Shown here one piece after another: positions 957-17,555 of a DNA stretch of 64,000 nt. A program made the translations under genes and the position numbers. Within the stretch, counting starts at the first letter, position 1. Each line of letters starts with the position of its first letter. Source of the DNA: an uncultured Acidobacteriota bacterium (GTDB taxonomy: Bacteria > Acidobacteriota > Vicinamibacteria > Fen-336); contig CAVTBK010000005.1 in the NCBI GenBank assembly GCA_963732935.1, forward strand, positions 528,736 to 592,735. The letters run 5' to 3'. The notes under the pieces were generated by a model. It was not told the DNA's origin. It searched no databases and saw only the letters and a program-made list of their open reading frames with translations.

Positions 957-3900
957 GCCATCCTCGAGCTGCCCGGAGGGGCGGCGCTCTCCGACTTCCG
1001 CCTGGAAAAGCTGAACGCCACGCTGCACCCGCTCGCGCTGTCGGTCCGATCCACCCGGTACTGGCACTTCGTCGAGGTGGACCGCGACCCGACGGCGGAA
1101 GAGACCGCGACGCTCGCGCGGCTCCTCCGCTATGGCCCGGGCCTCGCTCCCCCGCCGGAGCCGACCGGGGTGACCGTGCTCGTCACCCCGCGCCTGGGAA
1201 CCATCTCGCCCTGGTCCTCGAAGGCGACCGACATCGCGCGTCAGTGCGGCCTCGGGCTGGTACGTCGGATCGAGCGCGGCACCGCCTTCGACCTCGCGGG
1301 CGACGGGGAAAGAACCGCCGCGCTCCCCTTCCTGCACGACCGCATGACGGAGACGGTGCTGGCCTCGTTCCAGGAGGCGACCGCCCTCTTCCGTCACGTT
1401 CCGCCCAAGCCTCTGGCCGAGATCGACCTCCAGGGACGCGGACGCGCGGCGATCGAGGAGGCCAACGCCAGCATGGGGCTCGCCCTGGCCCCGGACGAGA
1501 TCGATTATCTGGCGGCCTACTTCGAGGGACACCACCGCAACCCGACCGACGTCGAGCTCACCATGTTCGCCCAGGCGAACTCCGAGCACTGCCGTCACAA
1601 GATCTTCAACGCCGGCTGGATCGTGGACGGCCGGAAGCAACCGCAGTCGCTCTTCCAGATGATCCGGGAGACGGAGAAGGCGAGCCCGACCGGAACGGTG
1701 AGCGCCTACTCGGACAACGCCGCCGTGATGGAGGGTCACAGCGTCCGTCGTTTCCAGGCGGACCCGGCGAGCGGACGCTACCTCTACCAGGAGCAGCTCC
1801 TCCACACCCTGATGAAGGTGGAGACCCACAACCACCCGACCGCCATCTCCCCCTTCCCGGGCGCGGCTACCGGCTCGGGAGGCGAGATCCGCGACGAGGG
1901 GGCCACCGGGCGCGGGGCGAAGCCCAAGGCGGGCCTGTGCGGCTTCTCGGTCTCGAACCTGCGCCTGCCGGGGCACGCGCGGCCCTGGGAAGGCCCGGCC
2001 GGCCAGCCCCGAGCGGATCGCCTCCCCGCTCACGATCATGATCGAGGGCCCGATCGGCGCGGCCTCCTTCAACAACGAGTTCGGCCGTCCCAACATCGCC
2101 GGCTACTTCCGCAGCTACGAGCAGGAGGTCGCCGGCAGCGGTCCGCGGGTACCACAAGCCGATCATGCTGGCGGGCGGGCGTGGGCAACGTCCAGGCCGC
2201 GGCACGCGAAGAAGGCGCGAGCTGCCCGCGGGCGCGCTCCTGATCCAGATCGGCGGACCGGCGATGCTGATCGGCATGGGCGGCGGCGCCGCCTCCTCCA
2301 TGTCGACCGGCACTAACGCCGCAGATCTCGACTTCGACTCCGTCCAGCGCGGCAACGCCGAGATCCAGCGCCGCGCCCAGGAGGTGATCGACCGCTGCAC
2401 GGCGCTCGGCGGCCGGAACCCGATCCTCTCCGTCCACGACGTGGGAGCGGGCGGGCTCTCGAACGCGCTGCCGGAGCTCGTCCACGGCTCCGGCCGGGGC
2501 GCCCGGATCGACCTGCGGGCCGCTCCCAACGAGGAGCCCGGCATGACGCCCCGCGAGGTCTGGTGCAACGAGGCGCAGGAACGCTACGTGCTGGCGATCG
2601 CGCCCGCGGACCTGGACGGTTTCCGCGCGCTGTGCGAGCGCGAGCGCTGCCCGTTCGCGGTGGTCGGCGTCGCCAGCGAGGACCAGCGCCTCGTGGTCCG
2701 ACGATCCCCTGTTCGGCAACGCGCCGGTGGACATGGAGCTGCCGGCGCTGCTCGGCAAGCCGCCGCGCATGACCCGCGAGGCGCGACGGCGTGCAGCGCG
2801 TCGCTGCGCCCTTTCGATGCCGCCGGCATCGAGATCGTCGAGGCCGCGCGACCGCGTGCTGCTGCACCCGGCGGTCGGCGACAAGACCTTCCTGATCACG
2901 ATCGGCGATCGCACCGTCGGCGGCCTGGTCGCGCGCGACCCGATGGTCGGGCCCTGGCAGGTGCCGGTCGCGGACTGCGCCACCACCCTCGCCGGCTTCG
3001 ACGGCTACGCGGGCGAGGCCTTCGCGATCGGCGAGCGCGCGCCGCTCGCGCGTCGCTCGACGCGCCGGCCTCGGGCCGGATGGCCGTCGCCGAGGCCCTC
3101 ACCAACATCGCCGCGGCGCGCGATCTCCACGCTCGCACGCGTCAAGCTCTCCGCCAACTGGATGGCGGCCGCCGGCGCACCAGGCGAGGACGCGGCTCTC
3201 TTCGACACCGTCAAGGCCGTCGCCCTGGATCTGTGTCCGGCAGCTCGGCATCGGCATTCCCGTCGGCAAGGACTCGATGTCCATGCGCACGACCTGGCGG
3301 AGGACGGTCAGGAGCGGCAGGTCGTCGCGCCGCTCTCGCTGATCGTCTCCGCGTTCGCGCCCGTGCGACGACGTGCGCGGGACGCTGGACGCCCCAGCTG
3401 CGCACGGACGCCGGGGAGACCGATCTCGTGCTGGTCGACCTCGCGAACGGGAGGGCCCGCCTCGGGCGGCTCCATCCTGGCCCAGGTCTTCGGCCAGACC
3501 GGAGACGCGCCGCCGGACCTCGACGATCCGCGCGCGCCTGCACGCGCTTCTTCGCGGCCCTCGCGGAGCTGCGGGCCGCCGGTCTCGTGCTCGCCTACCA
3601 CGACCGCTCCGACGGCGGTCTCTTCGTGGCGCCGCCGAGATGGCGTTCGCCGGCCACTCAGGCGTCACGCTCGACCTGACGCCGCTCGCGGGCGAGGCTG
3701 GAGACCCGGCCGCCGCGCTCGCCCTTCTCTTCAACGAGGAGCTGGGCGCCTGCTCCAGGTCCGGTCGAAGAGCTGCCGGCGTGTCCTGGATCTGCTCGCC
3801 GCGCGCGGCCTCCCGGCCCACGTGGTGGGCGCGCCGCGCGAGGACGAGCGCGTCCGGGTCGCGCGCTGGCCGGCCGGATGCTGCTCAACGAGAGCCGGAT

Positions 3901-4865
3901 CGCGCTCTGCACCGCGCTGTGGTCCGACACCACCTTCCGTCTGCAGTGCGCTCCGCGACAACCCGGAGGCGGCGCGCGCAGGAGTACGACCGCCTGCAGG
4001 ACGCGGGCGATCCGGGTTGTCGCCGGCGCTCAGCTTCGACCCGGACGAGGACGTCGCGGCGCCCTTCCTCGCGCGCGGCGTCCGGCCGCGCGCTGGCGGT
4101 CCTGCGCGAACAGGGCGTCAACGGGCAGGTGGAGATGGCGGCGGCGTTCGACCGAGCGGGTTTCGCGACGATCGACGTGCACATGAGCGACATCCTCTCG
4201 GGACGCGTCGTCGCTCGCCGGCTTCGCAGGCTTCGCGGCGCCGCGGCGGCTTCTCCTACGGCGACGTGCTGGGAGGCGGCGAGGGATGGGCCAAGTCCAT
4301 CCTCTTCAACCCCCGGGCCCGCGACGAGTTCGCCGCCTTCTTCGCCCGGACCGACAGCTTCGCGCTCGGCATCTGCAACGGCTGCCAGATGATGAGCGCG
4401 CTCCAGGAGCTGATCCCGGGTGCCGAGGCCTGGCCGCGCTTCGTCAAGAACCGCTCCGAGCAGTTCGAGGCGCGGCTGGTGATGGTCGAGATCCCCGAGA
4501 ACCCCTCGCTCTTCTTCCGGGGCATGGCGGGCAGCCGGATCCCGGTCGTGACCGCTCATGGCGAGGGCCGGGCCCTCTTCACAGACGGCAGGACGCCCGA
4601 GGACGCGATCGTGTGCCTGCGCTTCGTCGACAACCGCGGGCGCGTCAGCGAGAGCTATCCCTACAACGTGAATGGCTCGCCGCGCGGGATCACGGGTGTC
4701 ACCACCGCCGACGGGCGCTTCACGGCGCTCATGCCGCATCCCGAGCGGGTCTTCCGCTCCCTCCAGATGTCGTGGCATCCGGACGGCTGGGGCGAGGACA
4801 GCCCCTGGATGCGCCTCTTCCGCAACGCCCGGGCCTGGGTGGAAGAGGCGTCCGGCCCGCGCTGA
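954..4865 (+). pseudogene. purL: Phosphoribosylformylglycinamidine synthase, large single-chain type, disrupted by many frameshifts
   Basis: N-terminus [20 protein letters not shown] and C-terminus ...[22 protein letters not shown]...FTALMPHPERVF are typical large PurL. Between about 2010 and 4250, conserved PurL segments ([149 protein letters not shown]) are scattered over all three forward frames. At least 12 one-base indels are needed to join them, for example three single-base insertions within about 45 bp near 2170-2215. Confidence 0.8.
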
Positions 4866-4869
4866 CTCC

Positions 4870-5358
4870 CTATCCCGAGGCGCCCGGCTCGCCGCCTCGC
4901 CGACCCGCGCGCAAGCGGCCCAGCAGGCGCAGCAGGCCGATCCGCGAGAGCCAGGCCACGGCACGCCGCTCGGGCCCGAGCCCCAGCCGCACCCGCCGGC
5001 CGCGCCTCTCGGCCCGCGTCACGACGCCCAGGACCTCCGCCCGCGCGACGAGCGGATCGGCTTGCGGCGCCGCGTCCCCGCGCAGGAGAAGACCGTCCTC
5101 CCGGCGTGCCACCAGCCGGTGCACGAGCAGTCGATCCTCGCGCGGCGCGAAGGCCACCACCTCACCCTGAGAGGGTGAAGCGCCCTGGCACGGCGCAATC
5201 GTGAGGACGTCGCCGGCGCGCAGGAAGGGCGCCATGCTGTGGCCGGTCACCTCCAGCCGGACGGCCTGACCGGCGCGCAGCAGGTCCCCCAGCAGACGCG
5301 GAAGCCGGGCGACGGAGGCAGCAGGCGGCGGTTGCTCGGGGAGGTCGGGAGGCAGCAC
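4870..5358 (-). CDS. Small soluble S24/S26-like serine peptidase (Ser-His type, SipW/Sec11-like motifs), translationally coupled to the giant gene
   Basis: 162 aa. Motif VTGHSMAPFLRAGDVL matches the nucleophile-Ser box of LexA/signal peptidase I folds, and LLVHRLV resembles the Sec11/SipW His motif. The GTG start at 5356-5358 directly follows the TAG stop (5359-5361) of the upstream giant gene. No N-terminal TM segment is visible. Confidence 0.6.
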   Translation of the reverse strand: MLPPDLPEQPPPAASVARLPRLLGDLLRAGQAVRLEVTGHSMAPFLRAGDVLTIAPCQGASPSQGEVVAFAPREDRLLVHRLVARREDGLLLRGDAAPQADPLVARAEVLGVVTRAERRGRRVRLGLGPERRAVAWLSRIGLLRLLGRLRAGRRGGEPGASG

Positions 5359-8300
5359 CTAGTCGGGCAGCCGGCTGACCGGCTCGCCCAGCAGATTGTA
5401 CATGTAGCGCGTGGGCACGGCGCTCGCCCCGATCAGCTCCCGTAGCGCCCTCCCCACCGCGTCGCCAACCACCTTCTCGTTCCTCAGGAGGGCCGCCGTG
5501 AAGAAGGACTTGTCGAGCTTCACCGCGAGCGCGTTCTCGGAGAGCCCGGTCGGCGACCAGGCAGCGAAGGCACCCCCGTCCTTCTTGAGGACCATCGTCT
5601 CGGCGAGCGACGCGTAGCCCGGGATCGCGAAGTTCCCGGCCACGCAGGTCATCCCGAGCAGGATCGGCAGCCGGTCCGGGTTGGCGAGCCCCGCGACATC
5701 GCTGCTCGTCCACAGGCCCTCGTCCGCGAAGCGGTCGAGCCCCCCGTGGCCCACGTAGTTGAAGACACCCACGCCCGCGTTCAGGGCGTCGCGGATCGCC
5801 TTCCGCCCGGAGGCGGCCGTCGTGGTGGTGAGATAGACCTTGGCCGCGGCGTAGCCGGGCGGCAGCAGGGCGGCGACCGCGTCGCTGTCGGCCGTGAACG
5901 CCCCGGCCCCGTCGGGGTTGTCGGCGGCCATCAGCACCGCGTGCTGCCAGGCCTCGCCGGGCGCGCTCTCCTGGCGCTCGATCTTCGCGAGGTAGTCCAG
6001 AAGCTCCTGCGAGGTGACCACCGGGAGCCGGCCGATCGCGACCTCCGGGATCCCGTCGTCTCCGCGCAGATCAGCGAGACGCACGTCCGAGACGAAGAGC
6101 CCGTTGGCCGAGCTCGCCATCAGCGGCGGGACCAGGTTGTCGCCCACGCCCATCACGTCCTTGTAGTCCCAGGTGCCGCGTCCCACGAGCGTGACGTAGC
6201 GAGGCGGCGTCTGCCAGGAGGCGGTCGCGTAGCGCAGGAACGCGCGGATCGCGGTCGGTTCCGGGATCCCTCCGTTGAACTCCGAGTAGATGGCGGTGAG
6301 CGGGGCAACCATCGTGCGCAGCCCGTTGCGGTTCCGGTAGTCGGCCAGCGCCGCCGCGGCCGGCTCGAGCGAGTCGGGGGCGATCAGGACGTACTCGGCC
6401 ACGTTGTGCCGGTCCCGCAGCGTCGGCTGCCGGGAGGCCACGACCGCGAGGGGCGCCAGGGCGCGCTGCCGGACGAGCGCCAGGTAGCGCCCGCTACTGG
6501 CAGCGACGGCACCGAAACGGATCCGATAGCCTTCGCCAGGCACGGCCGTGGTCGTGTGCGAGAGCAGCCTCGGGCTCGCCGGCGTCGTCACGTCGAGCAG
6601 CAGCACGTCGGCGGACGAGAAGCCGCTGATCTCGACCGCCGCCCCGCGCGGGGCCGCGAAGGCGAGAGTATCGTCGACCGCGCGGTACTGCCGCGCGTAG
6701 CCGAGGTCGACCGAGTCCAGGTAGACGACGTCCTCGGGGACACCGGCGTCGTGAACGGCCCGGACTTCGAGCGTGTTGTCGCCTTCCCGCACCTCGCCGG
6801 CCAGCATCGGGATCTGGATCAGGTGAGGGCCGAGGCCACCCCAGGAGTCCTCGCCCACGGTGCTGCCGTTCCACGAGACGGTGACGTGGTGGTCGATCTC
6901 GGCGGCGTCGTCCGACCCGCCCGCCATCCGAATCGTGAGCGAGGCCGAGCCCGCTGCGACCACGCCCACGGCCGGGACCGTCACGCTGGCCGTGTCGAGA
7001 CCCTCGTAGCCGGCGAGTGCGTAGGCCCAGAACCAGAAATCGCCGTCCGGGTCCTGCACGACCGAAGGTGCCGCAAAGACATCCTCTTCCCGATGCACCG
7101 TCTCCTGGAAGAAGGCCGCCGCGCCGCCCCGGCCGTCGGTCGCGACGGCGCTCATCGTCGCTCCCGAGCCCACGCCGATCTGGTACACGTTCTCGTCCGT
7201 GTAGATGCCGGTTGCAGGCTCGGCGTAGAAGAAGATCCCGGCGTCGAGCGCGTCGGGCAGGTAGGGCACGGGCTGCCCGCGATGGGCCACCACCAGCTGC
7301 CGGGTACGGATCAGGACGCGGGCGGTGTCCGGCGTCAGGCCCGCCGGGACGGCGATCTCGTCGGCCGCGACGTAGTAGAGCCCGCTCTGCCGGGTCGTCA
7401 GCTCGACCCACCCGCCGCGCCAGCTGCGCCGCGCCGCGGCCGCCGCCCGCTGTTGGGCATTGGCCTCCTGGGCCCGCTGCTGGGCGAGCTGCGTCATGGG
7501 GGCGGGCTGACGACCGAAGAGCAGGTCCTTCATCGCGAGACTCCCGCCGGCCGCCGACGAGGCCACGCTGGACATGCCGCCCGCCGACGAGGCCACGCTG
7601 GACATCGCGGCCGCCTGGGCCAGGGACGCTGCCGCGGCGCCCTGTCCGCTGAGCCAGGGCGAGGGCCCCGCCAGAACGGAGAGGACCGTCTTCGCGCGGT
7701 TCCCCGCCACGGACGACCCGAGCGACCTCATGCTCGGCTCGGGGTCGGCGGCGACCGAAGCTGCCGTCTCGGACGGCGCGACCGTGTAGGGGCCGTGCGC
7801 CTGCTCGACTCCCCGCGCGTCGACCTCCACGAGCATGTAGCTCGACGGGCCCTCCGCCTCGGCCCCGAAGTCAGTGAAGCGGTAGGTCCCGCCCTCTGGA
7901 TGGCCGAGCAGGCCCGGCACCAGCCGCTCGTCGAGGCGCTTCCACTCCCGGCTGACGGTGTCGAATCGGAAGATGTGGAAGCCTCGTGTCCCGACCTCCA
8001 CCGACGTCCGCCACTCGACCACGACCGCCCCGCCCGTCAGATGGGTCCTGAACGACGCCACGTTGGCGAAGGTCACCTGTGGCGGGCGGAAACCGAAGTC
8101 GACGCCGGACACGTCGGCGCTGCTGAGGTCGACCGTCTCCTGCAGATCGAAAGGCCCTGTCGTCCCCTCCGTCCTCTCGTAGGTCGCGGAGAGTCCCGCC
8201 AGCACGCCGTTGACGTCGGTCAGCTCCACCGTGTACGTGCCGGCCGCGAGACCCTGCACGGAGTAGATCCCGTCCGCGTCGGTCGTCAAGCCAGCGATCA

Positions 8301-11300
8301 CCGTTCCACCGGAGAGGACGTCGAGCGTCACCCCGGCAATGCCCGTCTCGCCCGTATCGAGGACGCCGTTCCCGTTGGTGTCGTTCCAGACGACTCCGGA
8401 AAGCGAGCGCGACACGAGGGCCTGGAAGCCGAAGTCCGCCCCCCAGTAGCTGACGCCGCCCGTGATCGTCGCGTTCAGCTGGAGCCCCGCCAAGACCGGG
8501 TCCGCGTCCGTGCCGGTGAACGCGTAGCCGGTCAGGGCCGGCACGCTCACGACGTAGCTGCCGTCGCCCAACCCGGCGAACACGTAGTGCCCGTTGGCAT
8601 CCGTCGTGGTCGTGTAGAGCGGGGTACCACCCTGGTAGAGCTGGACCACGACTCCGGGGATGCCACCCTCGCCGGAGTCCTGCACGCCGTTGCCGTTGGT
8701 GTCGAAGTAGACCGTGTCGCCGATGGCGCGCGTCGCCCGGAAGCCGTAGCTCGGCGACGAGCGCCGATCCCGGTCCGCGGTGAGGTTGCTCTCGGCGCGC
8801 CGGCGGGCCACGGCCCAGGTCGTCGTCCCCGCAAAGTCGGCGAGCACGCCACCCGTGTCACTGACGCGCGTCGTGTAGTTCGCGCCACCGCCGGTGACGC
8901 CGCTGAAGCTGAAGGTGCCGTCGGCCGCGCTGACGGCCGTGCCGATCACGTTGAGGCTCGCGTCCAGGAGGTCGACGCTCACCCCGGCGATCCCGCTCTC
9001 GCTGCCGCTGTCCCAGAGGCCGTTGCCGTTCAGGTCGAACCAGACGCGATCGCTGATCGCGTAGGTGGTGACCGTGCTTCCCGTGAAGCCGAAATCCGCG
9101 GTCACGTACGCGGTGCCAGCGACGACGTTCGGGAAGTAGTAGGTGCCCGGCGTGGTCAGGGCGTAGCCGCCCGGCGTCTGCACGGCGACGAAGTAGTCCT
9201 CGCCGCCGGTCAGACCGCTGGCGGTCAGCAGGTAGTGGCCGTCGACGCCGCTGGTCGTGGTCTGGATCGGGGTCGTCTCGCCCGCGTCCAGGACACCGTT
9301 CCCGTTCGCGTCCAGCAGAAGGCTCACGGTGGCGCCGGCGTAGGCGACTTCGCCCGCGTCGCGCAGGCCGTTCCCGTTCGCGTCCACCCACACCTGATCG
9401 CCGAAGAGAACCGTCCCGGTCGCGGGCCGATAGCCCAGGTCCGCGCTCGTGTAGCTGTCTCCGCGGGCGAGGTTGAAGGGCACCGAGCGGTTGCCGCCGT
9501 AGACGGCCGGGTTCGGATAGGACTGCGAGACACCGGCCGGCAGCCCTCCGGTGACCTCCACGTAGTAGCCGTCCCCGGGCGCCACGGTCGGGAACAGATA
9601 GCGGCCGCCGACGTCCGTGTACAGCGTGCCGAGCGGCGTTCCCCAGACGTCCTTCAGCGTGACCTCGACGTTCGCGATCCCCGACTCGCCGAAGTCCTGG
9701 ACGCCGTCCCCGTCGGCGTCGAGCCAGATGCGTCCCGCGACACTCGCGCTCACGACACTCGGGTTCGTGACGATGTTCGTGGCCGAGGCGCTCACCTGGA
9801 TGGGAAGCTGAACCGACGTTGTCGAGGCCGTGTTGGTGATGGAGCTGATGCCGGTCGGCAGCGGTGCGTCGACGGTGACGTTGAAGGTGGCCGTCAGGGT
9901 TCGACCCGCCGCCAGCGCGTAACCGTATGCGCTCGGCAGCAGATCGGGGGGATTGCTCCCGCTCACGGCCCTGTCGTATGTGATCGAGAGATTGTCGACG
10001 TAGAAGTACTCGCCGTTCTCCGCGTAGTCGCTAGCCGCCGGAATGCTGAACCTCACCTCCGTCAGGCCAGCGGGGGCAGCCAGGGGGATCGCGAACGTGG
10101 CGACCCCGGACACGTCGTCGGAGTAGGTGGCAAGTGTCATCCAGGCGCCACCGCCTCCTAGGCGGTATTGAACCGCGATGTCGTCCGTCGGCTCGAGATT
10201 GTTCGACGTCCGGTAGTCGAAAGCGAGCTCGGCCCAGGTCGCGCCACTCCCGGCCAGGTCGACGCCGCGTGAAATGGCGGGAGTGGCCGCGCTATAGCTG
10301 ATAGCCAGGTTGTCGACGTAGAAGTACTCGTTGTTCTCGTAGCTGGTCGTGTAGATCCTTATGGTCGTCGTCGCGGACAGCAGACCGGCCGGGATCGCGA
10401 AGTTGACGGTCCCGGTGTGATCGTTCTGGAAGTTCAGCACGGTCGTCCAGGGCCCCGCGGGGCTCGAGGCGACGTCGATCCACATATAGTCGCCGTTGTC
10501 GACGTTGCCGCTCGTCGTGTAGTTGCAGGTGATCGTTGCAGCGGTGGCCCCGGCTAGGTTGACCTGCCGGTAGATCGTCTGGGCGTTGCCCCCGAGGCGG
10601 AGCTGTCCGTTCAGGATCCGGATGTCGCCCGCGTTCGGTCCGTCGCCCTGGCTGTCGACCCAGTTGCCGTTCCAGTTCGTCGTGCCGTCGTTGTTGTTGT
10701 AGGCCGCCGTTCCGAAGTCGTCTTCCACGGTGCTGGGGGGCGTCAGGTAGCTGGTGAGCCTGAGCTCGCCACCGGTCACACGCACCACCCCGGTCGCGGG
10801 GGCGGCGTCGTCTTGCGTCTCTACCCAGCTGCCGGTCCAGTTCCGCGAGCCGTTGTTGTTGCCGTACGCTACGGTGTCGAAGCGATCGGCCACCGACGAG
10901 GCACTGAGAATCGTCGTCCCCGAGACCGAGCTCACTCCTGCGGGAAGCATGTCGTAGAGGGTGACCCCGGTCAGCGTGGTTCCGGAGCCCGCGGGGTTCG
11001 AGACCGTCGTCGTGTAGGTGAGTGTGTCGCCGGGATAGACGGGGGTCGCCTCCGGGACGCTCGAGGCCTTCGTGATCTGGACCGTGGTGCCGGCGGTGCC
11101 TTCCGAGACCACGTAGGTGAAGTCCTTGGTGGTGAAGGTCTGCGTCACGCCGCTCACCGTTCGCGTCCCGACTGCCTGCACCCGGTTTTGACTCAGCGTG
11201 CCTTCGGGCAGCGCCACTGTCGTCCGGGCCGTGAACGTGACCACGATCGACTGGTTGGGGGCCATGGCCCCGCCGGTCTGTGCGGTCGACCAGACGAGAG

Positions 11301-13212
11301 TCTGGCCGGTCGCGGGCACGCCGCTGGTGGCGGGATCAGCACCTGCACCGCTGAGCGTCGTCAAGTCAGGTCGGGTGACGGTGGTCGTCCCCGAGACGTA
11401 CTGCCAGTTCGGGGGAAGGTAGTCGGTGACCGTCACGCTACCCACCGTGTATTTTTCCGACCTCACGGCGAGCGTGAAGGTCGCCTGCGAACCGGACGCG
11501 GTCGGGACCACCTGAGGTGTCACCGACTTGGTCACGCCCAGCACGAGCGAGATGAAGTCGGTGCCGGGGATTGCCACGTAGCCGAGGTCCAGCGCGGGCG
11601 CGCCAGTCGGGGCGTTGTTCGAGTTCTGGCCGTACGCCATGCTGAAGAGCCCGGTCGCCCAGATCCGGGCGCCCGAGAGGTCGCCGTCGTTCGGGTCGTA
11701 GATATACTGGCTCTGCAGGCGGCTCAGGGTGTAGGTCTGGTCGATCGTCCCGTCGTTGTCGTAGTCGACGAACACGGTCGTGTTGTCCTGGGCGGCGATC
11801 AGAAAGGCGCCCATGTCGCTTCTGTCGCCGGCGGCGCAGGTCGTCGGGTAGCAGTCGGGCGCCCAGCCGAAGAAGTGCTCCCGGTAGAGCATCGTGGACG
11901 GGAGCAGGCTGTATCCCCACTCGTGCGCCTGCCCCTCGGAGTCGTTGGAGCCCACCCCCCAGAAGACGTCGCTGCCCCGCAGGTAGAGCCCCGAGCCGGC
12001 AGGCAGGTTGCCCGCCAGCGCGCGGAAGGACACCGCGCTGGTGGCGGGGATGTTGAAGAAACCGGAGGTCGTCTCGGTGGACCAGTCGATCCTGATCGAC
12101 GCCGCGTTCGGGTTGTAGAGGTAGTAGTCGGTGTAGCCGTTCGCCGTGCTGGTGGGCTGGTCGAGCGGGGCGTAGTAGTCGGTCGTCCAGAAGCCGCGGG
12201 GGAAGGCGCTGAAGCCGCGCGTGTTGTAGGTGTCGTTGGTGTTGCCCGCGATGTACTTCACCTGCAGCGTGTCGCTGCCGGTGATGATCGCCCCCTCCGC
12301 CAGGTTGCCGGCCGCGACGTGGGCGCTGGTGTCGTCGAGCAGGAAGGTCTGCCCCTCCTGCAAGGTCACCGAGTAGGCGTCGAGGGCGCCGTTCCTGTCG
12401 GTGTCGAGCTGATCGGCCGTGCCGTCGTGGTTGAGGTCGAAGGTTACCGTCGTGTTGTTCTTGGTCGCCTGGACCAGCACGGCCACGTGCTCGAAGCCGT
12501 GCCATCCACGTGTCTCGCCGAAGGGAAGCACGTAGGTCGTGAGCTGCGGCTTGATCGGGTAGATCTCCCAGGCGGCTCCCTGGACCCCGACGGTTCCGCC
12601 CCGGGCGGCATTCTCGTCCAGCCAGCCCACCCGCGTGACCGTGACCACCCCGCCGGCGACGTAGATGCGATCCCCCCCGTCGTAGCAGGTGGTGCTGTTG
12701 GTCCCGCCCCTGATCACCGTCGAGGTGCCCCCGGCCCGGTAGAGCGTGGCCGAGTAGGTGCCGCACTGGGTCGCCGGTGGGTTGGGGGGCGCGCTGGGGT
12801 AGGTGTTCCAACGCGGGAGCGCGATCGTGCCGCTGTCGAAGACCAGACGGTCGCCGGTGTTGAGGGCGTGGCCGCTGGCCACGTCATAGGTCTCATCCGC
12901 GGTGGCGGGATTCGCGGGGTCGAAACCGTAGCCGTTCTCCCAGTGGTCGAAGTAGACGGTCGTGTTGTCCGACCAGGCCGTCACGCTGATCACGACGTGT
13001 GTGTGGACGGGGTTCGGGCACGGGTACGCCCAGGCGCCGTAGACGCAGAGGACGCGGCCCATGTTGTCCTCGTCGCCTGGGATGAAGTACTCGGAGTACC
13101 CGGCCGCGACCTGGGCCATGGCCGGCGATGCGGCCAGGACGAGGAGGAGCGCCAGGGCACCCCGGCGCCATGCCTTGAGAGCACGGAAGGTCGTCGTCAG
13201 AGCAAGAATCAT
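5359..13212 (-). CDS. Giant secreted multidomain protein (about 2617 aa): signal peptide, three N-terminal repeats, DUF11-like repeats, two lectin/CBM-like modules, about six Cna-B/SdrD-type repeats, Ala/Ser-rich linker, C-terminal peptidase C25 (gingipain-like) domain
   Basis: Single ORF. The likely start is the ATG at 13210-13212 (MILALTTTFRALKAWRRGALALLLVLAASPAMA-QV, a signal peptide); the ORF track extends to 13410 through an in-frame upstream region with no ATG start. Repeats of the SdrD-B type (VWLDADGDGVQDFGESGIANVEVTL, VWVDANGNGLRDAGE, VWFDLNGNGLWDSGSE, VYFDTNGNGVQDSGE, VWNDTNGNGVLDTGE). The C-terminal 340 aa align to gingipain catalytic-domain motifs (YVTLVG, NYVGHGG, LGMTCVAGNF). 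Confidence 0.85.
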   Translation of the reverse strand: MILALTTTFRALKAWRRGALALLLVLAASPAMAQVAAGYSEYFIPGDEDNMGRVLCVYGAWAYPCPNPVHTHVVISVTAWSDNTTVYFDHWENGYGFDPANPATADETYDVASGHALNTGDRLVFDSGTIALPRWNTYPSAPPNPPATQCGTYSATLYRAGGTSTVIRGGTNSTTCYDGGDRIYVAGGVVTVTRVGWLDENAARGGTVGVQGAAWEIYPIKPQLTTYVLPFGETRGWHGFEHVAVLVQATKNNTTVTFDLNHDGTADQLDTDRNGALDAYSVTLQEGQTFLLDDTSAHVAAGNLAEGAIITGSDTLQVKYIAGNTNDTYNTRGFSAFPRGFWTTDYYAPLDQPTSTANGYTDYYLYNPNAASIRIDWSTETTSGFFNIPATSAVSFRALAGNLPAGSGLYLRGSDVFWGVGSNDSEGQAHEWGYSLLPSTMLYREHFFGWAPDCYPTTCAAGDRSDMGAFLIAAQDNTTVFVDYDNDGTIDQTYTLSRLQSQYIYDPNDGDLSGARIWATGLFSMAYGQNSNNAPTGAPALDLGYVAIPGTDFISLVLGVTKSVTPQVVPTASGSQATFTLAVRSEKYTVGSVTVTDYLPPNWQYVSGTTTVTRPDLTTLSGAGADPATSGVPATGQTLVWSTAQTGGAMAPNQSIVVTFTARTTVALPEGTLSQNRVQAVGTRTVSGVTQTFTTKDFTYVVSEGTAGTTVQITKASSVPEATPVYPGDTLTYTTTVSNPAGSGTTLTGVTLYDMLPAGVSSVSGTTILSASSVADRFDTVAYGNNNGSRNWTGSWVETQDDAAPATGVVRVTGGELRLTSYLTPPSTVEDDFGTAAYNNNDGTTNWNGNWVDSQGDGPNAGDIRILNGQLRLGGNAQTIYRQVNLAGATAATITCNYTTSGNVDNGDYMWIDVASSPAGPWTTVLNFQNDHTGTVNFAIPAGLLSATTTIRIYTTSYENNEYFYVDNLAISYSAATPAISRGVDLAGSGATWAELAFDYRTSNNLEPTDDIAVQYRLGGGGAWMTLATYSDDVSGVATFAIPLAAPAGLTEVRFSIPAASDYAENGEYFYVDNLSITYDRAVSGSNPPDLLPSAYGYALAAGRTLTATFNVTVDAPLPTGISSITNTASTTSVQLPIQVSASATNIVTNPSVVSASVAGRIWLDADGDGVQDFGESGIANVEVTLKDVWGTPLGTLYTDVGGRYLFPTVAPGDGYYVEVTGGLPAGVSQSYPNPAVYGGNRSVPFNLARGDSYTSADLGYRPATGTVLFGDQVWVDANGNGLRDAGEVAYAGATVSLLLDANGNGVLDAGETTPIQTTTSGVDGHYLLTASGLTGGEDYFVAVQTPGGYALTTPGTYYFPNVVAGTAYVTADFGFTGSTVTTYAISDRVWFDLNGNGLWDSGSESGIAGVSVDLLDASLNVIGTAVSAADGTFSFSGVTGGGANYTTRVSDTGGVLADFAGTTTWAVARRRAESNLTADRDRRSSPSYGFRATRAIGDTVYFDTNGNGVQDSGEGGIPGVVVQLYQGGTPLYTTTTDANGHYVFAGLGDGSYVVSVPALTGYAFTGTDADPVLAGLQLNATITGGVSYWGADFGFQALVSRSLSGVVWNDTNGNGVLDTGETGIAGVTLDVLSGGTVIAGLTTDADGIYSVQGLAAGTYTVELTDVNGVLAGLSATYERTEGTTGPFDLQETVDLSSADVSGVDFGFRPPQVTFANVASFRTHLTGGAVVVEWRTSVEVGTRGFHIFRFDTVSREWKRLDERLVPGLLGHPEGGTYRFTDFGAEAEGPSSYMLVEVDARGVEQAHGPYTVAPSETAASVAADPEPSMRSLGSSVAGNRAKTVLSVLAGPSPWLSGQGAAAASLAQAAAMSSVASSAGGMSSVASSAAGGSLAMKDLLFGRQPAPMTQLAQQRAQEANAQQRAAAAARRSWRGGWVELTTRQSGLYYVAADEIAVPAGLTPDTARVLIRTRQLVVAHRGQPVPYLPDALDAGIFFYAEPATGIYTDENVYQIGVGSGATMSAVATDGRGGAAAFFQETVHREEDVFAAPSVVQDPDGDFWFWAYALAGYEGLDTASVTVPAVGVVAAGSASLTIRMAGGSDDAAEIDHHVTVSWNGSTVGEDSWGGLGPHLIQIPMLAGEVREGDNTLEVRAVHDAGVPEDVVYLDSVDLGYARQYRAVDDTLAFAAPRGAAVEISGFSSADVLLLDVTTPASPRLLSHTTTAVPGEGYRIRFGAVAASSGRYLALVRQRALAPLAVVASRQPTLRDRHNVAEYVLIAPDSLEPAAAALADYRNRNGLRTMVAPLTAIYSEFNGGIPEPTAIRAFLRYATASWQTPPRYVTLVGRGTWDYKDVMGVGDNLVPPLMASSANGLFVSDVRLADLRGDDGIPEVAIGRLPVVTSQELLDYLAKIERQESAPGEAWQHAVLMAADNPDGAGAFTADSDAVAALLPPGYAAAKVYLTTTTAASGRKAIRDALNAGVGVFNYVGHGGLDRFADEGLWTSSDVAGLANPDRLPILLGMTCVAGNFAIPGYASLAETMVLKKDGGAFAAWSPTGLSENALAVKLDKSFFTAALLRNEKVVGDAVGRALRELIGASAVPTRYMYNLLGEPVSRLPD
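5362..6395 (-). other. Peptidase C25 (clan CD, gingipain-like) catalytic domain at the C-terminus of the giant protein
   Basis: aa about 2340-2683: VLIAPDSLEPAAAALADYRNRNGL...PRYVTLVGRG...IPEVAIGRLPV...NYVGHGGLDRF (candidate His, codon about 5746-5748) ...PILLGMTCVAGNF (candidate Cys, codon about 5644-5646). No recognisable T9SS, PEP-CTERM or LPXTG C-terminal sorting signal follows. Confidence 0.7.
7551..7610. repeat. Near-perfect 30-bp tandem duplication inside the giant gene linker
   Basis: ccgccgacgaggccacgctggacatgccgc followed by ccgccgacgaggccacgctggacatcgcgg. It encodes the duplicated SSVASSAGGM/SSVASSAAGG within an Ala/Ser/Gln-rich low-complexity linker. Confidence 0.7.
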
Positions 13213-13419
13213 CGGGCCCCCGCGGCCAGAAAACGCCTGTCGGAGCATAGCCGGGGTGGCTGAGAATACGTCGTGTTTCCGGACACATCGCACCACGCCT
13301 GTGATCCAACGCAAGTGCGATGCCGCGTCGCAAGTCGCTTGTTTGCAGCAAATTCGCGACGTGATCCTGTCCGGGTTCCGGACGCGGGGTCCGATCCGGA
13401 CCCGCAACACGCCGAGTCG
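13213..13419 (-). promoter_or_regulatory. AT-richer 207-bp intergenic region upstream of the giant gene, with three TCCGGAC motifs and CGCAAGT direct repeats
   Basis: TCCGGAC occurs at about 13277-13283, 13374-13380 and 13395-13401, around the palindromic core TCCGGA. cgcaagtgcga and cgcaagtcgc lie at 13311-13338. GC is locally lower (aaattcgcgacg, ttgtttgcagcaaatt). Confidence 0.3.
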
Positions 13420-14520
13420 CTAGGTGCGGGCCACGCCCGCCAGGTAGCCCTCGACGACGTCGACCGCCGCCACCTCGGGCCGGAACTCCAGGGTCGCTGT
13501 GGGAACCGAAGACACGAGCCGGCCGCAGGTCTCGAGCGCACCGCCCACGTAGTCCCGGTCGTACCAGGGCACCGACGTCGTGCGCAGCAGCCGGGCGAGC
13601 GCGTCCTGGGCACTGACCGGACGGACCTCGTTGGTCCGTCCCTGCTCGAGGAAGAGGATGCCCGCCAGCGGGCCTTCGAGGTTCGCCGCAGCCAGTCCCT
13701 CTCCCGGCCAAGGCGTGCCGAGGAGCGAGGGGTTCCCGTCCTCGGTCCGTACGATGACCCTGTCGTCAGAGAGCGGCGTCCAGCCCGCTCTCCCGGCCGC
13801 GAGGGCGGTGAGCGTCGTCTTCCCCGCCCCGGAGACACCGACGAAGGCGAGCCCCTTCCCGCCGACGAGAGCGCCGGCCCCGTGCACGACGATGCCACTC
13901 TCGGCGAGCAGGTACATGGTGAGGATCTGATCGAGCGGATAGTGGAACGGGCTCGTGAGGACCGGGCCCGCCTCGTCGCTCACCAGAAGCCGCGGTGCGC
14001 ACTGGACCACGACTTCCGGCGAGCCGGGACGGAACTCCGCCACGTACAGCGTGTCGCCGTCGGGGTGCCGGAACGCCACCGCTCGTCGCTTGTCCCTGGC
14101 GAGGATCGACCAGGTAGCGCTGCTCCGAAAGAGCGTCTCTCCCTCGAAGGAGGGGGACTGGGTGACCGTGTGCCGGATCCGCACGGCGGACCGCGCCGCC
14201 GCAAGGCCAGGGGCCGTCGGGGCGGCGGCGACGAAGGTGCGATAGGCCGGGTCGCTCTCCAGTCGGAGCTCGAGCCCTTCCGCCGAGAGCAGGAAGTCGA
14301 CGCCGCCGAGACGGATGCGCCAGGAGGGGGGCAGGCCTAGGAGCCCTTGCCCGCGCAGCTGTGGACCATGCAGACGGGGGGGGCCGCAGAGCCCACGGCA
14401 GTCCTGCCAACCATCTTGCAGCCGACCGCGAGCACTTCCTCGGCTTTGAGGTCGACGATCAGCAGCTCGGGCTTCTCGTACGGCGCCTTCGCCGGGGGCT
14501 CCCTCGTCACCATACGTCAC
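13420..14520 (-). CDS. HPr kinase/phosphorylase C-terminal-domain-like kinase (lasso-peptide-kinase-like, HprK-related)
   Basis: HGAGALVGGKGLAFVGVSGAGKTTLTALAAGRAGWTPLSDDRVIV matches the HprK C-domain pattern HG.L....G.G.L..G.SG.GKS..A..L...G..L..DD (a P-loop). The N-terminal extent is uncertain; the track uses the farthest alternative start. Confidence 0.65.
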   Translation of the reverse strand: MTYGDEGAPGEGAVREARAADRRPQSRGSARGRLQDGWQDCRGLCGPPRLHGPQLRGQGLLGLPPSWRIRLGGVDFLLSAEGLELRLESDPAYRTFVAAAPTAPGLAAARSAVRIRHTVTQSPSFEGETLFRSSATWSILARDKRRAVAFRHPDGDTLYVAEFRPGSPEVVVQCAPRLLVSDEAGPVLTSPFHYPLDQILTMYLLAESGIVVHGAGALVGGKGLAFVGVSGAGKTTLTALAAGRAGWTPLSDDRVIVRTEDGNPSLLGTPWPGEGLAAANLEGPLAGILFLEQGRTNEVRPVSAQDALARLLRTTSVPWYDRDYVGGALETCGRLVSSVPTATLEFRPEVAAVDVVEGYLAGVART

Positions 14521-14596
14521 GTTAAGGCGACGCTGACTCGCTTGTCAAGGAAGCGCGGGCTGGTAGAGACGGGCGCCGGGAAGGTGGCCGAACGCC

Positions 14597-15631
14597 CTAC
14601 TCGTCGAGCAATGCGGCGATCGCCCGCCAGCGGGCCTCGCCGAGCGCGCAGTAGTAGTCGGACTTGCGCTGCGGGCTCCCCGTCTCCATGCCGGCCTGCG
14701 CCGGACACAGACCGCACAGGAAGCGCTTCTCGCAGGAGTGACATTCGTAGCCCGGCTCGACCGGCTGCTCCCGGAAGCCGGGCAGGACGGTCTCCCACCC
14801 TTCCCGGAAGCTGCCTCGACGCAGGTCGAAGCCGTGCGACGAGGCCATCAGACACGGCAGCAGCGTGCCCTCCGGGTCCACGTGGAAGCCGGTCAGGCCG
14901 GCCCCACACGAGAAGAGGCGCTGCTCGGGTGCTGCGCCGCGCACCTTTCGAAAGTACTCGGCGGTGAGACGCAGCAGGCCCTCGTCCTCCATCTCCAGAG
15001 CCACCGTCTGCTCCGGCGCGACGCGGTGGTCGAGCGGGGTCCGGCAGCCGTCGCGGCACGGGAAGAGCGCTCCGTCGATCCGGAACGCGAGCTGCCGCTC
15101 CTCCGCCAGCCCGCGCATTGCCCGGACCTCGTGCAGGTTCTCACGCATGACCACGGTCTTGAGGGCGACCGGGATGCGCCGGGCGACGAGCGCATCGACG
15201 CCGGCCAGGCAGCGCCGGTAGGAGCCGGGCACGCCCGTCACCCCCTCGTAGACCTCGGCGCTCGCCCCGTAGAGCGAGACCTCGACCATCTCCGGTGTGA
15301 GCCGCTCGAAGAGCGAGACGAGCCGCTCGTCGACGAGCGTGGCGTTGGTGAAGACGGTGACCAGGATGCCGCGGCGCGCGGCCCGCTCGTACACCTCGGC
15401 GAAGTCGCGTCGCAGCAGGGGCTCCCCGCCCGTGATCAGGAGGTTCAGGCATCCGGCGTCCGCCACCTGGTCGACCAGCGACAGCCAGAAGGCGGTCGCG
15501 CGCTCGCGGGGCTCGAGACCGCCCTGCCGCTCGTCGCCCAGGTAGCAGTGCAGACAGCGCAGGTGGCAGCGGTGGGTCATGGCGATCGAGCCGCTCAGGG
15601 GGACCCTGGCCGCCCGCGCACGCTCCAGCAT
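14597..15631 (-). CDS. Radical SAM/SPASM-domain peptide-modifying enzyme
   Basis: CHLRCLHCY is a CxxxCxxC motif soon after the likely start MLERARA. The C-terminal Cys-rich twitch/SPASM region reads YECHSCEKRFLCGLCPAQAG...YYC. The track ORF extends to 15763, overlapping pqqD; the true start is uncertain (ATG near 15630). Confidence 0.8.
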   Translation of the reverse strand: MLERARAARVPLSGSIAMTHRCHLRCLHCYLGDERQGGLEPRERATAFWLSLVDQVADAGCLNLLITGGEPLLRRDFAEVYERAARRGILVTVFTNATLVDERLVSLFERLTPEMVEVSLYGASAEVYEGVTGVPGSYRRCLAGVDALVARRIPVALKTVVMRENLHEVRAMRGLAEERQLAFRIDGALFPCRDGCRTPLDHRVAPEQTVALEMEDEGLLRLTAEYFRKVRGAAPEQRLFSCGAGLTGFHVDPEGTLLPCLMASSHGFDLRRGSFREGWETVLPGFREQPVEPGYECHSCEKRFLCGLCPAQAGMETGSPQRKSDYYCALGEARWRAIAALLDE

Positions 15632-15680
15632 CGCCGTGATCCGCGCGTGAACGGCGTCGGCATGCGGTGCGGCGCCCACC

Positions 15681-15983
15681 TCAGCTCCTCCGCTCGGCGA
15701 TGCCAGCCTCGGCCAGCCGCTCCACGAAGGCTCGGAGGTCCACGCGAGCCTCCTCGGCGCCAACCTCGTAGTGGTCCAGGATGGCGGCGAGCACGGCCTC
15801 CAGCGACCGCTCGCCGTCCAGCAGTTCCCAGACGAAAGCGCCGACGCCGGTCACCATGAAGATCGACTTCAGCTCGGCCGCGTCCCGCCGGATCGGCACC
15901 AGCAACCGCTCACCGGCCACGTCCCGGAGGATGACGTCGTTTCGCCGCGCGAAGACGGCGTCCGCAGCGTTCTGCTGAGGCAT
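15681..15983 (-). CDS. PqqD-family peptide chaperone (RRE domain)
   Basis: MPQQNAADAVFARRNDVILRDVAGERLLVP...IFMVTGVGAFVWELLDGERSLEAVLAAILDHYEV...RAFVERLAEAGI is the canonical PqqD fold signature. The ATG at 15981-15983 is preferred over the track's TTG at 16025. Confidence 0.8.
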   Translation of the reverse strand: MPQQNAADAVFARRNDVILRDVAGERLLVPIRRDAAELKSIFMVTGVGAFVWELLDGERSLEAVLAAILDHYEVGAEEARVDLRAFVERLAEAGIAERRS

Positions 15984-16042: not shown

Positions 16043-17555
16043 TGTTGTTGACAAGTGAAATGTCCGCTTGGTTTTGACAAGTGATCGGTCCGCTTTTCGC
16101 TAGGCCTTCGATGTGGCGTGCAGGGTCGGAGTGCCAGCCGGAGGGAGCCGGAGGCGACCGGAGGCTGGCACTGCAGCGGCGGCCGCCCGCCGCTTCGAGG
16201 GCCTGTAGCTGCTGATCGCGGGGACGACCTGAGAGTCGACCCGAGCTGCGTTCGTCGATCCTGGGGCATCCTGGCGCGTCGGTCTGCTCGGCTCGGGCGC
16301 GCGAGCCCGACCCTCCGCGCTGTAGGAGCCGAGGAGCTGGGCACCACGGCGAATCGTGTAGCCTCCGTCGAGGTGGCGGCGGACCTGGACCGCAAGCCCC
16401 GCGCAGGTGTGGCGCCCCGGCTGCTTCGCGATCTGCAGCACGGTTCCTTCGAGGCTGACCGTGTTGTCCCTACGTACCGTGCGGTCTTCGTACTCGAAGA
16501 AGATCCCATTGAGATCAACCTCACCGAGCCCCACGAAAGCACTCTCGGGATCGGAAGCCTCGCAGGCGAACTCCTCGTTGTGCGTCGGGATGTAGCGCTC
16601 GCCTAGATATCGATTCGCCGCCTCTACCGTCGTGATCCCGGCCGCGCGCAGCTCGTTCACCAGCCGGTCCTGCAAAGTGCGATTCATCCGCTCAGAGCGG
16701 CCGCGTCCTTGGGGCGAGTAGGACGGGATGTGCTCGACCCCGAGCCGATCCAGCGCCTCCCCGACTTGGGTCAAGACCGTCTTGCTGACCTTGCCCCCGG
16801 CCTTCGGAGTCTCGAAAGCCCACCCCGCTCGGTCCGTGTAGAACGACTCGGGGATGCCATGCTGCCGCACCAGCTCCGCCATCGCTGTCATCACGGCGCG
16901 GGTCGTCTCTCCTGGCCACAGTTGCGCATAGAGCACCCGCGAGGTCGCATCGTCCACCGACTGAATCAGCGTCTGCTTTTCCCCGGGCACCAGCGCCAGC
17001 CAGGCATGGAGGCTGCCGTCCAGGTGCAGCATCTGACCGAAGCGGGGCTTCCTCGGTCTCCTCATCCGGTGTCGACCTCGAGCCTTACGTTTCTCGATCA
17101 GACCCGCCCCCTGCAGGATCTGCTTCACGCACGTGTACGACAGCTTCACTCCGTGCTCCCGGCGTACCGTCGAGCAGAAGTGCCGAGCGTTGAAGCCCCG
17201 ATAGCGGTCCCGATACAGCTGCAGGATCCGCTCGATTTCCGCCACCGCTGTCCGCCGTGGAGACGGTCGGCCGCACCGCCGGTCGACAAGCCCCTCGTAC
17301 CCGAACCGCTCCATCCTCTGCCGCACCCGCCTCAAGCCTCGAGGCGTAATCCCCAGGATCTCCGCAGCCCGAAGCCAGCTGTACTCCTTGTTCATCGTCC
17401 GCAGCAGCACTTCCTTGACCTGCATGGCCCGCTCCACAGCCGAGAGCGGAAAGTCCATGGCCACCTCCACCGGCGGCCATACACCCCTTCTTCCCGGCTG
17501 GCAAAAGCGGACATTTCACTTGCTCTCGAGAGCGGACCGATCATGTGCTCTCTAC
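16043..17555 (-). mobile_element. Insertion sequence (about 1.5 kb) with IS481/ISNCY-like rve transposase and composite terminal repeats
   Basis: Single transposase ORF at 16100-17470. Each end carries two sub-repeats, CAAGTGAAATGTCCGCTT and TGATCGGTCCGCT, in inverted orientation (left 16050-16098; right 17505-17553 as reverse complement). It is bounded by the 18-bp direct repeat. Confidence 0.75.
16100..17470 (-). CDS. DDE (rve/integrase-core) transposase with N-terminal HTH, IS481/ISNCY-like
   Basis: 456 aa. N-terminal HTH region (WLRAAEILGITPRGLRRVRQR), then integrase-core DDE residues: LHLDGSLHAW, ...IQSVDDATSR (D), ...FYTDRAGW (D), ...SERMNRTLQDR (E). It appears intact. Confidence 0.85.
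   Translation of the reverse strand: MEVAMDFPLSAVERAMQVKEVLLRTMNKEYSWLRAAEILGITPRGLRRVRQRMERFGYEGLVDRRCGRPSPRRTAVAEIERILQLYRDRYRGFNARHFCSTVRREHGVKLSYTCVKQILQGAGLIEKRKARGRHRMRRPRKPRFGQMLHLDGSLHAWLALVPGEKQTLIQSVDDATSRVLYAQLWPGETTRAVMTAMAELVRQHGIPESFYTDRAGWAFETPKAGGKVSKTVLTQVGEALDRLGVEHIPSYSPQGRGRSERMNRTLQDRLVNELRAAGITTVEAANRYLGERYIPTHNEEFACEASDPESAFVGLGEVDLNGIFFEYEDRTVRRDNTVSLEGTVLQIAKQPGRHTCAGLAVQVRRHLDGGYTIRRGAQLLGSYSAEGRARAPEPSRPTRQDAPGSTNAARVDSQVVPAISSYRPSKRRAAAAAVPASGRLRLPPAGTPTLHATSKA

Follow-up and report, generated by a model that had tools for sequence, protein, structure and literature searches.

PorU-type enzymes are regarded as belonging to Bacteroidota's type IX secretion system (T9SS). 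PorU of Porphyromonas gingivalis (PG0026, PDB 6za2, MEROPS C25) is a Cys/His peptidase that removes the C-terminal domain (CTD) of its cargo and then joins the cargo to an amine of anionic lipopolysaccharide (A-LPS), to free amines, or to short peptides (PMC10202324). Here, we studied a window of 64,000 nucleotides (the whole stretch of DNA analyzed: positions 528,736 to 592,735 of contig CAVTBK010000005.1, GenBank assembly GCA_963732935.1) from an uncultured Acidobacteriota bacterium of the Vicinamibacteria, in which a giant minus-strand gene encodes a protein whose last 680 aa resemble PorU more than the gingipains. The giant protein and PorU share the dyad motifs (NY.GHGG; TC), PorU is the best match in both sequence and fold, and the PorU multi-domain fold (N-terminal beta-sandwich plus gingipain-type catalytic domain) is present in the structural model of the giant protein. 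The giant protein differs from PorU in its sequence (~16% identity), in lacking PorU's own C-terminal CTD, and in that the module is fused behind a 1900-aa adhesin rather than standing alone; the giant proteins occur in phyla that are not known to possess a T9SS.

Other described systems resemble parts of this locus. The gingipains RgpB and Kgp (MEROPS C25.001-003) share the catalytic fold and also combine a protease with adhesin-type domains, but in the giant protein the domain order is reversed, the prodomain is absent, and no immunoglobulin superfamily (IgSF) domain and CTD follow the catalytic domain. With SdrD/MSCRAMM and DUF11 adhesins only the type of repeat is shared: the giant protein has no A-domain and no LPXTG motif, and its NCBIfam score is 153 bits, where the cut-off is 2500. 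The genes beside it have PqqD, radical S-adenosylmethionine (radical SAM)/SPASM, and HprK-like components in common with the cassettes described by Haft (SynChlorMet ScmC/D/E/F, GeoRSP, and HprK-related kinase A/B; NCBIfam models TIGR04248-04251, TIGR04302-04303, TIGR04352, and TIGR04355), whereas the cassette in the window has its own 55-60-aa three-Cys peptide, an S26-like peptidase, and a link to a giant C25 gene, and scores far below the cut-offs of those models. What is new is a PorU-type module in one chain with a giant adhesin, outside the T9SS phyla and co-inherited with a predicted peptide-maturation cassette; in the searchable literature, we found no paper that ties C25 to SPASM/PqqD or describes these giant proteins.

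A PorU-type module at the end of a giant adhesin

The giant gene is intact and encodes a surface protein with predicted Sec export. Its minus-strand open reading frame (ORF) in the window spans 5359..13410 (2683 open codons), and when translated from the ATG at 13212 it yields a protein of 2617 aa that is the same as P0001 in the database, start included. Residue numbers are counted from this ATG; those of the initial annotation, which was made from the letters of the window, run from an upstream GTG. The GC content at third codon positions (GC3) is 0.91, as expected in a genome of this composition (71% GC in the window), and we therefore regard the gene as real. The signal sequence and its cleavage site (MILALTTTFRALKAWRRGALALLLVLAASPAMA before the cut, QVAAGYSEY after it) are of the typical Sec type, and the mature N terminus behind the signal peptide, AGYSEY[YF]IPGDE, is nearly invariant in 120 homologs, which bears out the signal peptide annotated initially. 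At the other end, the protein closes with YNLLGEPVSRLPD and the stop codon, 3 residues past the C25 match, and nearly all homologs end alike. Along the gene, from start to stop, the following parts can be told apart:

13114..13212, minus strand: start codon (ATG 13212) and Sec signal peptide, aa 1-33, cleaved between AMA and Q (from the translation)
11548..13113, minus strand: head at the N terminus, aa 34-555, built of three to four beta-sandwich modules, without a Pfam model
9742..11547, minus strand: stalk part 1, aa 556-1157, with DUF11/Ig-like modules, ~55-aa repeats, jelly-roll modules, and a spacer
8077..9741, minus strand: stalk part 2, aa 1158-1712, made up of five repeats of SdrD B-like (Cna-B) type with a DxNGNG calcium-site motif
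7783..8076, minus strand: Fn3-like domain, aa 1713-1810 (VVVEW.T..E.GT.GF...R ... YGPFTV), conserved across homologs
7411..7782, minus strand: low-complexity, disordered linker rich in Ala, Ser, and Gln, aa 1811-1934, a candidate processing site
6406..7410, minus strand: PorU-type N-terminal beta-sandwich domains, aa 1935-2269 (NCBIfam PorU, Foldseek)
5359..6405, minus strand: Peptidase C25 catalytic domain, aa 2270-2617 (Pfam), including the TAG stop (5359-5361)

The C25 domain is present at full length: Pfam Peptidase_C25 (PF01364) matches aa 2274-2614 with an E-value of 1.2e-78 and 265 bits against a cut-off of 23, and the match covers positions 1-373 of the 374 in the model. His2489 in NYVGHGG (nt 5746-5748) and Cys2523 in LGMTCVAG (nt 5644-5646), whose codons we checked, align with His211 and Cys244 of RgpB and with the PorU dyad in phmmer alignments to 1cvr, 4ief, and 6za2, and both residues are kept in 115/115 homologs that possess the domain. 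The residue Asp163 of the RgpB S1 site also aligns with an Asp in the query, where PorU has Asp as well. Given the full domain and the dyad, the giant protein apparently carries an active peptidase, and the order that the initial annotation had described, adhesin-type repeats first and C25 last with these two residues as candidates, stands.

Its comparison with an inverted gingipain does not. The best family model is NCBIfam PorU (NF033707), of which positions 106-732 of 1095 match aa 2003-2615 with 219 bits against a cut-off of 420, that is, below the equivalog threshold; in a sequence search of PDB, PorU was matched at 4e-16 and RgpB at 1e-9. A structural model of aa 1930-2617 (predicted local distance difference test, pLDDT, 88) compared by Foldseek matched PorU (6za2) over the whole module (E-value 3.6e-32, query TM-score, TMq, 0.60, ~800 aligned columns), whereas RgpB (E-value 1e-17, TMq 0.43) and Kgp (5e-13) were matched over the catalytic core only. 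Because the PorU match extends over the whole module in both fold and sequence, we assign the region before the catalytic domain to the PorU set of beta-sandwich domains rather than to a gingipain propeptide; the initial annotation had suggested a propeptide-like or an Ig-like module here. A Pfam search of the giant protein for Propeptide_C25 gave no match at E <= 0.1.

In the adhesin part, the head appears lectin-like by fold when its structural model is compared against PDB structures. The three N-terminal repeats annotated initially stand out in the model as a beta-sandwich that recurs, yet are weak as sequence repeats (z 3-5). The stalk is ~1150 aa long in all. Its first part contains the DUF11-like material that had been noticed before, with one NCBIfam DUF11 repeat match (aa 723-767), as well as two ~55-aa repeats (aa 775-885, z 18) and two ~100-aa modules (aa 886-1079, z 23.6; both scores from Smith-Waterman comparison with shuffled sequences) that are jelly rolls ending in YFYVDNL[AS]I[ST]Y; there is also a weak Pfam match to Reelin_subrepeat-B. 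A sequence search of PDB with aa 770-1160 gave no match, and no internal matches were listed in a self-BLAST of the giant protein. The second part matches Pfam SdrD_B at E 5.6e-68 in five stretches (repeat z-scores 9-18), one fewer than the approximately six repeats counted initially. The Fn3-like domain is the last of the adhesin part, and the linker behind it varies in length and is mostly gapped in the alignment of homologs. As had been annotated, no C-terminal sorting signal can be recognized: models for the T9SS CTD, LPXTG, and PEP-CTERM (Pfam, NCBIfam) matched nowhere in the giant protein.

Interchangeable C-terminal ends in relatives with the same head

Proteins that share the head with the window protein do not all end in C25. 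In the Chloroflexota, relatives with the same signal peptide, AGYSEY head, and repeat stalk (e.g., L075, L083, P0210, and P0227) also have a terminal domain of cysteine transpeptidase type, but it is a classical sortase (C60 fold) behind [LI]PxTG, and the Fn3-like domain, C25, and a nearby radical SAM cassette are absent. The final 135 aa of this type are a Pfam Sortase domain (E-values 3.5e-19 and 2.6e-24), and the motif [LI]PxTG[FY][AP]P lies ~30 aa before the sortase in the same chain in 11/11 sequences, comprising two loci (L075:9962-14815 and L083:9922-14625) and nine representatives (P0163, P0164, P0179, P0183, P0198, P0203, P0205, P0210, and P0227). JGI names these relatives "LPXTG-site transpeptidase (sortase) family protein"; we found no paper on Chloroflexota proteins with an LPXTG-type motif and a sortase in one chain.

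A further five representatives end in a type A sorting domain of the T9SS (TIGR04183, scoring 26-38 bits where the cut-off is 23), which sits right behind the same Fn3-like domain that precedes the linker in the window protein. One protein (L064/P0143) ends immediately after the Fn3-like domain, other relatives with the head domain have a hydrophobic tail with basic residues at its end, and one C25-type homolog carries an additional PEP-CTERM-like tail. The occupants of this slot, namely a signal processed by PorU, a PorU-like enzyme, a sortase signal with its sortase, and a membrane tail, are all anchoring devices. Since the slot holds anchoring devices across the family, we infer that the C25 module, too, may be one, in the form of a built-in sortase-like peptidase.

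A large family known from metagenome-assembled genomes

A search of 5.8 billion proteins recovered at least 115 full-length homologs of 2300-3100 aa with the same order of Pfam domains, from metagenome-assembled genomes (MAGs) of Acidobacteriota, Nitrospirota, Desulfobacterota, and Gammaproteobacteria. The layout, which had first been taken for an undescribed one, is thus neither unique nor rare, and some homologs already bear NCBI names such as "C25 family cysteine peptidase", "DUF11 domain-containing protein", or "SdrD B-like domain-containing protein". Their common end, ...YNLLG[ED]P[VA]..L., comes directly after the C25 domain; because it is shared, the missing C-terminal sorting domain is a family trait, and the loss by truncation that the initial annotation had allowed for does not apply. 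The in-frame sequence past the giant stop codon was considered as such a lost domain and ruled out, being a separate, conserved gene for an S26-like peptidase.

The head domain (~520 aa) nearly always begins at residue 30-60, right behind the signal peptide, and is marked by AGYSEY and by the invariant motifs D-W-E-G, Y-D-G-D, E-Y-P-P-Q, and P-R-G-W; it is covered by no model in Pfam or NCBIfam. Searched with a head profile, 1.84 billion representatives yielded 2002 clusters, of which 1050 matched at E <= 1e-30, and a scan of one genome per species gave 484 head-domain loci. All of the distinct head-domain loci that we retrieved (79/79) are from MAGs, and they belong to Acidobacteriota (Vicinamibacteria, Thermoanaerobaculia, Holophagales), Nitrospirota, Desulfobacterota, Binatia, Gammaproteobacteria, and Chloroflexota. 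Those closest to the window are from Acidobacteriota (Vicinamibacteria) and Binatia MAGs, which, with the window's GC content, agrees with the non-Bacteroidota background noted initially. The giant protein is a typical member of a large, wholly uncharacterized family that is known from MAGs only.

A peptide cassette around the giant gene

The giant gene is flanked on both sides by an operon of five genes that the initial annotation had missed. In the order of transcription, and interrupted by the giant gene before the last of them, they are:

15681..15983, minus strand: PqqD-family peptide chaperone (recognition element, RRE, of peptides that are made by the ribosome and modified after translation, RiPPs), 100 aa from ATG 15983 (NCBIfam)
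14597..15763, minus strand: radical SAM/SPASM enzyme, 388-aa ORF whose true start may lie downstream (Pfam Radical_SAM, E 3.7e-20)
14337..14513, minus strand: 58-aa small ORF resembling a RiPP precursor (ORF list; homologous ORFs)
13420..14340 (upstream end approximate), minus strand: HprK-related/ScmC-like P-loop protein, start uncertain (Walker A GVSGAGKT, LSDDR, GTPWPGE)
4870..5358, minus strand: S24/S26-like peptidase, 162 aa (Pfam Peptidase_S24, E 1.2e-6)

The 58-aa peptide consists of a leader (YEKPELLIVDLKAEEVLAVGCK), a variable stretch, and C-x5-C-x4-S at the C terminus. In its homologs, the leader reads YEKPxL..IEL.AEEVLAVGCK and is followed, after a stretch that varies, by C-x4-5-C and by a C-terminal Gly-Ser that is invariant, so that three Cys residues and the terminal Ser are conserved. 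In 32 loci from different phyla, at GC contents of 52-72%, such small ORFs fill the slot between the radical SAM gene and the ScmC-like gene, and we consider the ORF in the window real because its homologs occupy the same slot; NCBIfam has no model for the peptide family.

The remaining proteins belong to recognizable superfamilies without falling into a curated system. The PqqD-like protein matches the NCBIfam models for lasso PqqD, ScmD, GeoRSP PqqD, and PqqD (E-values 1e-7 to 4e-4), below their cut-offs, and just upstream of its gene lies the sole sigma-70-like site in 13.6 kb (16025-15996), which is weak evidence for a promoter. The best NCBIfam matches of the radical SAM enzyme are MftC, ScmE, AhbD, and PqqE, again all below cut-off. 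For the HprK-like protein, matches to HprK_rel_B, HprK_rel_A, and ScmC are weak and far below cut-off, although the motifs of the family are invariant. In bits over cut-off, the scores are 98/265 for MftC, 94/400 for ScmE, 91/381 for PqqE, 62/400 for GeoRSP, 22/125 for ScmC, and 29/100 for ScmD, and none of the five cassette proteins (0/5) scores high enough for a curated NCBIfam system. The locus does, however, have the generic makeup of a RiPP cluster: a short precursor gene has an RRE/PqqD gene and one for a modifying enzyme beside it, and the precursor combines a leader that is conserved with a core that contains Cys. To judge from their sequences, the five cassette genes look like a peptide-maturation pathway in which the peptide is predicted to be modified.

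The GTG start of the S26-like peptidase directly abuts the TAG stop of the giant gene. In the window, the protein has the boxes GHSMAP, LVHRL, and RGDA (Ser/His/Asp), which its homologs keep as G[RH]SMxP, LHR[IV], and [TK]GDA, and its best NCBIfam match is the archaeal/endoplasmic reticulum (ER)-type signal peptidase I (E 7.7e-8; 32 bits, below the cut-off of 52). The family has no N-terminal membrane helix, and a hydrophobic C-terminal helix is found in some members only.

The start of the HprK-like gene stands out: between 13420 and 14520, the place at which homology sets in (~14310) has no ATG, GTG, or TTG close to it, and of the in-frame candidates, 14184 would lose conserved residues and 14520 would overlap the entire peptide gene. 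The gene may have a non-standard start or be translationally coupled.

Linkage of the cassette and the giant gene

We took the PqqD, radical SAM/SPASM, peptide, and HprK-like genes as the core of the cassette and called linkage where at least three of the four were adjacent. This was the case at 31/53 species-representative loci with head and C25 domain, in three arrangements: downstream on the same strand (22 loci), upstream on the same strand (7), which is the arrangement of the window, and upstream on the opposite strand (2). The S26-like gene is also found in 17/31 cassette-positive loci, directly behind the giant gene in the window and other Acidobacteriota loci and behind the ScmC-like gene in Nitrospirota loci. 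The linkage also holds in reverse. When metagenomes were scanned with an alignment of the ScmC-like protein, a C25 gene lay immediately upstream of every close match of full length (5/5), together with PqqD and radical SAM genes in 5/5 and the peptide ORF in 4/5.

At the DNA level, the window is 65-73% similar to other Acidobacteriota loci, and this similarity is confined to 4890-15973; among the same loci, no shared genes were found upstream of PqqD. Because similarity stops at the borders of the cluster and nothing is shared upstream of PqqD, the conserved unit comprises six genes. Directly upstream of it, an ISNCY-family transposase is encoded at 16100-17470 on the minus strand (324 bits against a cut-off of 250). 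The transposase, together with similarity that ends at the borders, hints that the cluster is mobile.

Some loci have further genes nearby. In one Acidobacteriota genome (L001:17716-23439 and L001:8976-9773), a second C25 protein of 1907 aa is encoded after the giant gene and a prepilin peptidase before it. Several Nitrospirota loci (e.g., L003:9068-9646) have a type IV pilin-like gene upstream and genes for exopolysaccharide (EPS) export downstream (BBP2 barrel, Wza, Wzz/kinase, and Wzy-like). None of these extra genes occurs in the window, and they are specific to their clades; those for pili or type II secretion (T2SS), confined to some Nitrospirota and Acidobacteriota clades, were considered as part of the system and rejected for this reason.

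Proposed role and alternatives

The reading that we favor, tentatively and with somewhat less than even confidence, is that the C-terminal module is a built-in sortase-like peptidase or transpeptidase and the giant protein a self-anchoring adhesin, rather than a nutrient-scavenging protease; it is a computational reading of comparative anatomy. The protein would be exported via Sec, with head and stalk as the adhesin part. After export, the C25 module would cut its own chain, or that of a neighboring copy, in or near the linker, and the adhesin part would then be set free or, in the manner of PorU and its T9SS cargo, be joined to an amine of the cell envelope that serves as acceptor. Putative transpeptidation to an amine acceptor is suggested solely by the interchange of C-terminal modules among relatives. 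The cassette product, for its part, is probably needed by the PorU-like module or acts on it, as acceptor, activator, or inhibitor, to judge solely from the gene neighborhood.

Several observations weigh against such a role. A search of the linker across homologs turned up no conserved cleavage motif, the 58-aa peptide has no export signal and the cluster no transporter, and 17/53 loci, including a whole Thermoanaerobaculia subclade, have no cassette in reach. PorV, PorZ, PorQ, and A-LPS, partners that PorU requires, are not expected in these phyla, and among the examined genes of the 64-kb window none for these partners, and no other T9SS gene, was seen. An intact dyad is equally compatible with an ordinary protease. 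Finally, there are ~50 more distant cassettes without a giant gene within 10 kb (among them L104-L107, L111, L113-L117, L129-L131, and L134), frequent in soil metagenomes, with the order S26-like, ScmC-like, PqqD, and radical SAM/SPASM. In the one such locus examined further (L134, 6812-13190), a 731-aa secreted protein without a Pfam match precedes the cassette and an NTP_transf_5 gene follows it. Because these cassettes lack the giant gene, the cassette type is broader than the giant system and not strictly dedicated to it, and the giant-linked cassette is one branch of this wider type.

The initial annotation took the protein for an adhesin-protease, and in a full version of that explanation head and stalk would bind a substrate or cell, C25 would degrade proteins for nutrition or attack, and the cassette would make an unrelated peptide. 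Part of this has held, in that the protein is giant, carries a predicted Sec signal, and has an apparently active, full-length C25 domain with a conserved dyad; the head is lectin-like, an Asp corresponds to RgpB Asp163 (a position where PorU has Asp too), and gingipains likewise join catalytic and adhesin domains. What speaks for anchoring or transpeptidation instead is that the whole 680-aa module fits PorU and not the gingipains, with no Propeptide_C25, that a sorting signal or a sortase at the same position in relatives is hard to explain for a digestive domain, and that the adjacency of the cassette persists across phyla despite rearrangements. We consider an adhesin-protease unlikely on this evidence, although it is a serious competitor. 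A different possibility puts the giant protein inside the peptide pathway, with the PorU-like domain removing the leader of the modified 58-aa peptide or ligating the peptide, which might join the new C terminus of the adhesin or serve as its anchor or acceptor. The cassette does go with the C25-type members and was not seen beside the sortase-type relatives, the invariant Gly-Ser end and the three conserved Cys of the peptide suit such a substrate, and PorU is able to transfer cargo to short peptides and amines (PMC10202324). Against this, peptide and C25 module would have to meet although the module is predicted to be extracytoplasmic and the peptide has neither signal peptide nor exporter; the S26-like peptidase of the cassette is the more obvious leader peptidase; and a search for a peptide-like segment inside the giant proteins found none. 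We regard this role as improbable, and we would give the same low weight to a combination of it with the self-anchoring adhesin, a self-contained display system free of the T9SS in which an in-chain PorU-type sortase ligates the adhesin to, or through, the radical SAM-modified cassette peptide.

Only one cassette gene would matter to the giant protein if the S26-like peptidase were a dedicated, SipW-like signal peptidase that produces the AGYSEY N terminus and the remaining cassette genes were unrelated neighbors. That N terminus is invariant, the best NCBIfam match (below cut-off) is to a signal peptidase and the Ser/His/Asp boxes are like those of one, and in the Acidobacteriota loci, the window included, the giant gene has the peptidase gene directly behind it; but an N-terminal membrane anchor is absent, the distant cassette without a giant gene also counts this peptidase among its core members, and in Nitrospirota loci it follows the ScmC-like gene instead. 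The balance makes a SipW-like role very improbable. Least credible, to the point of being negligible, is an artifact or pseudogene, whether a chance ORF in a high-GC genome or an assembly error that cut off a sorting domain. High-GC DNA does yield many long spurious ORFs, and the two or more frameshifts in the neighboring purL show that indels are present in the assembly or the genome; yet the GC3 value and strong domain matches along the full length speak for a real gene, the sequence beyond the stop is a separate conserved peptidase gene, and the homologs with the same terminal residue pattern already refute the idea.

Whatever its exact role, a PorU-like module with an intact dyad here ends giant adhesins in Acidobacteriota, Nitrospirota, Desulfobacterota, and Gammaproteobacteria, and the interchangeable C-terminal ends suggest that some surface proteins bring their own anchoring enzyme. 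An unnamed radical SAM peptide cassette gains its first candidate partner, and a three-Cys peptide family is defined. If the T9SS-free display system were to prove true, it would be the first functional link between RiPP-type maturation and protein sorting and would place working PorU-type sortases outside the secretion system of the Bacteroidota. All of the evidence is computational and comes from uncultured organisms, and its value is that of a well-defined hypothesis.

Other features of the window

The purL gene (single-chain phosphoribosylformylglycinamidine, FGAM, synthase; 966-4865, plus strand) does not keep to one reading frame: frame 0 encodes PurL positions 3-355 (966-2013), a different frame encodes 408-590 (2165-2716), and ~600-1290 are again encoded in frame 0 (2727-4865). 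With at least two frameshifts, it is either a pseudogene or affected by assembly indel errors. Before it, at 1-942 on the plus strand, lies a partial B12-binding radical SAM gene whose best match is "lipid biosynthesis B12-binding/radical SAM protein" (181 bits, below cut-off) and which appears unrelated to the six-gene cluster. At 37586-42627 on the plus strand, two coding-like ORFs (37586-40471, with an alpha-amylase domain, and 39766-42627) overlap by ~700 nt and may represent another frameshifted gene.

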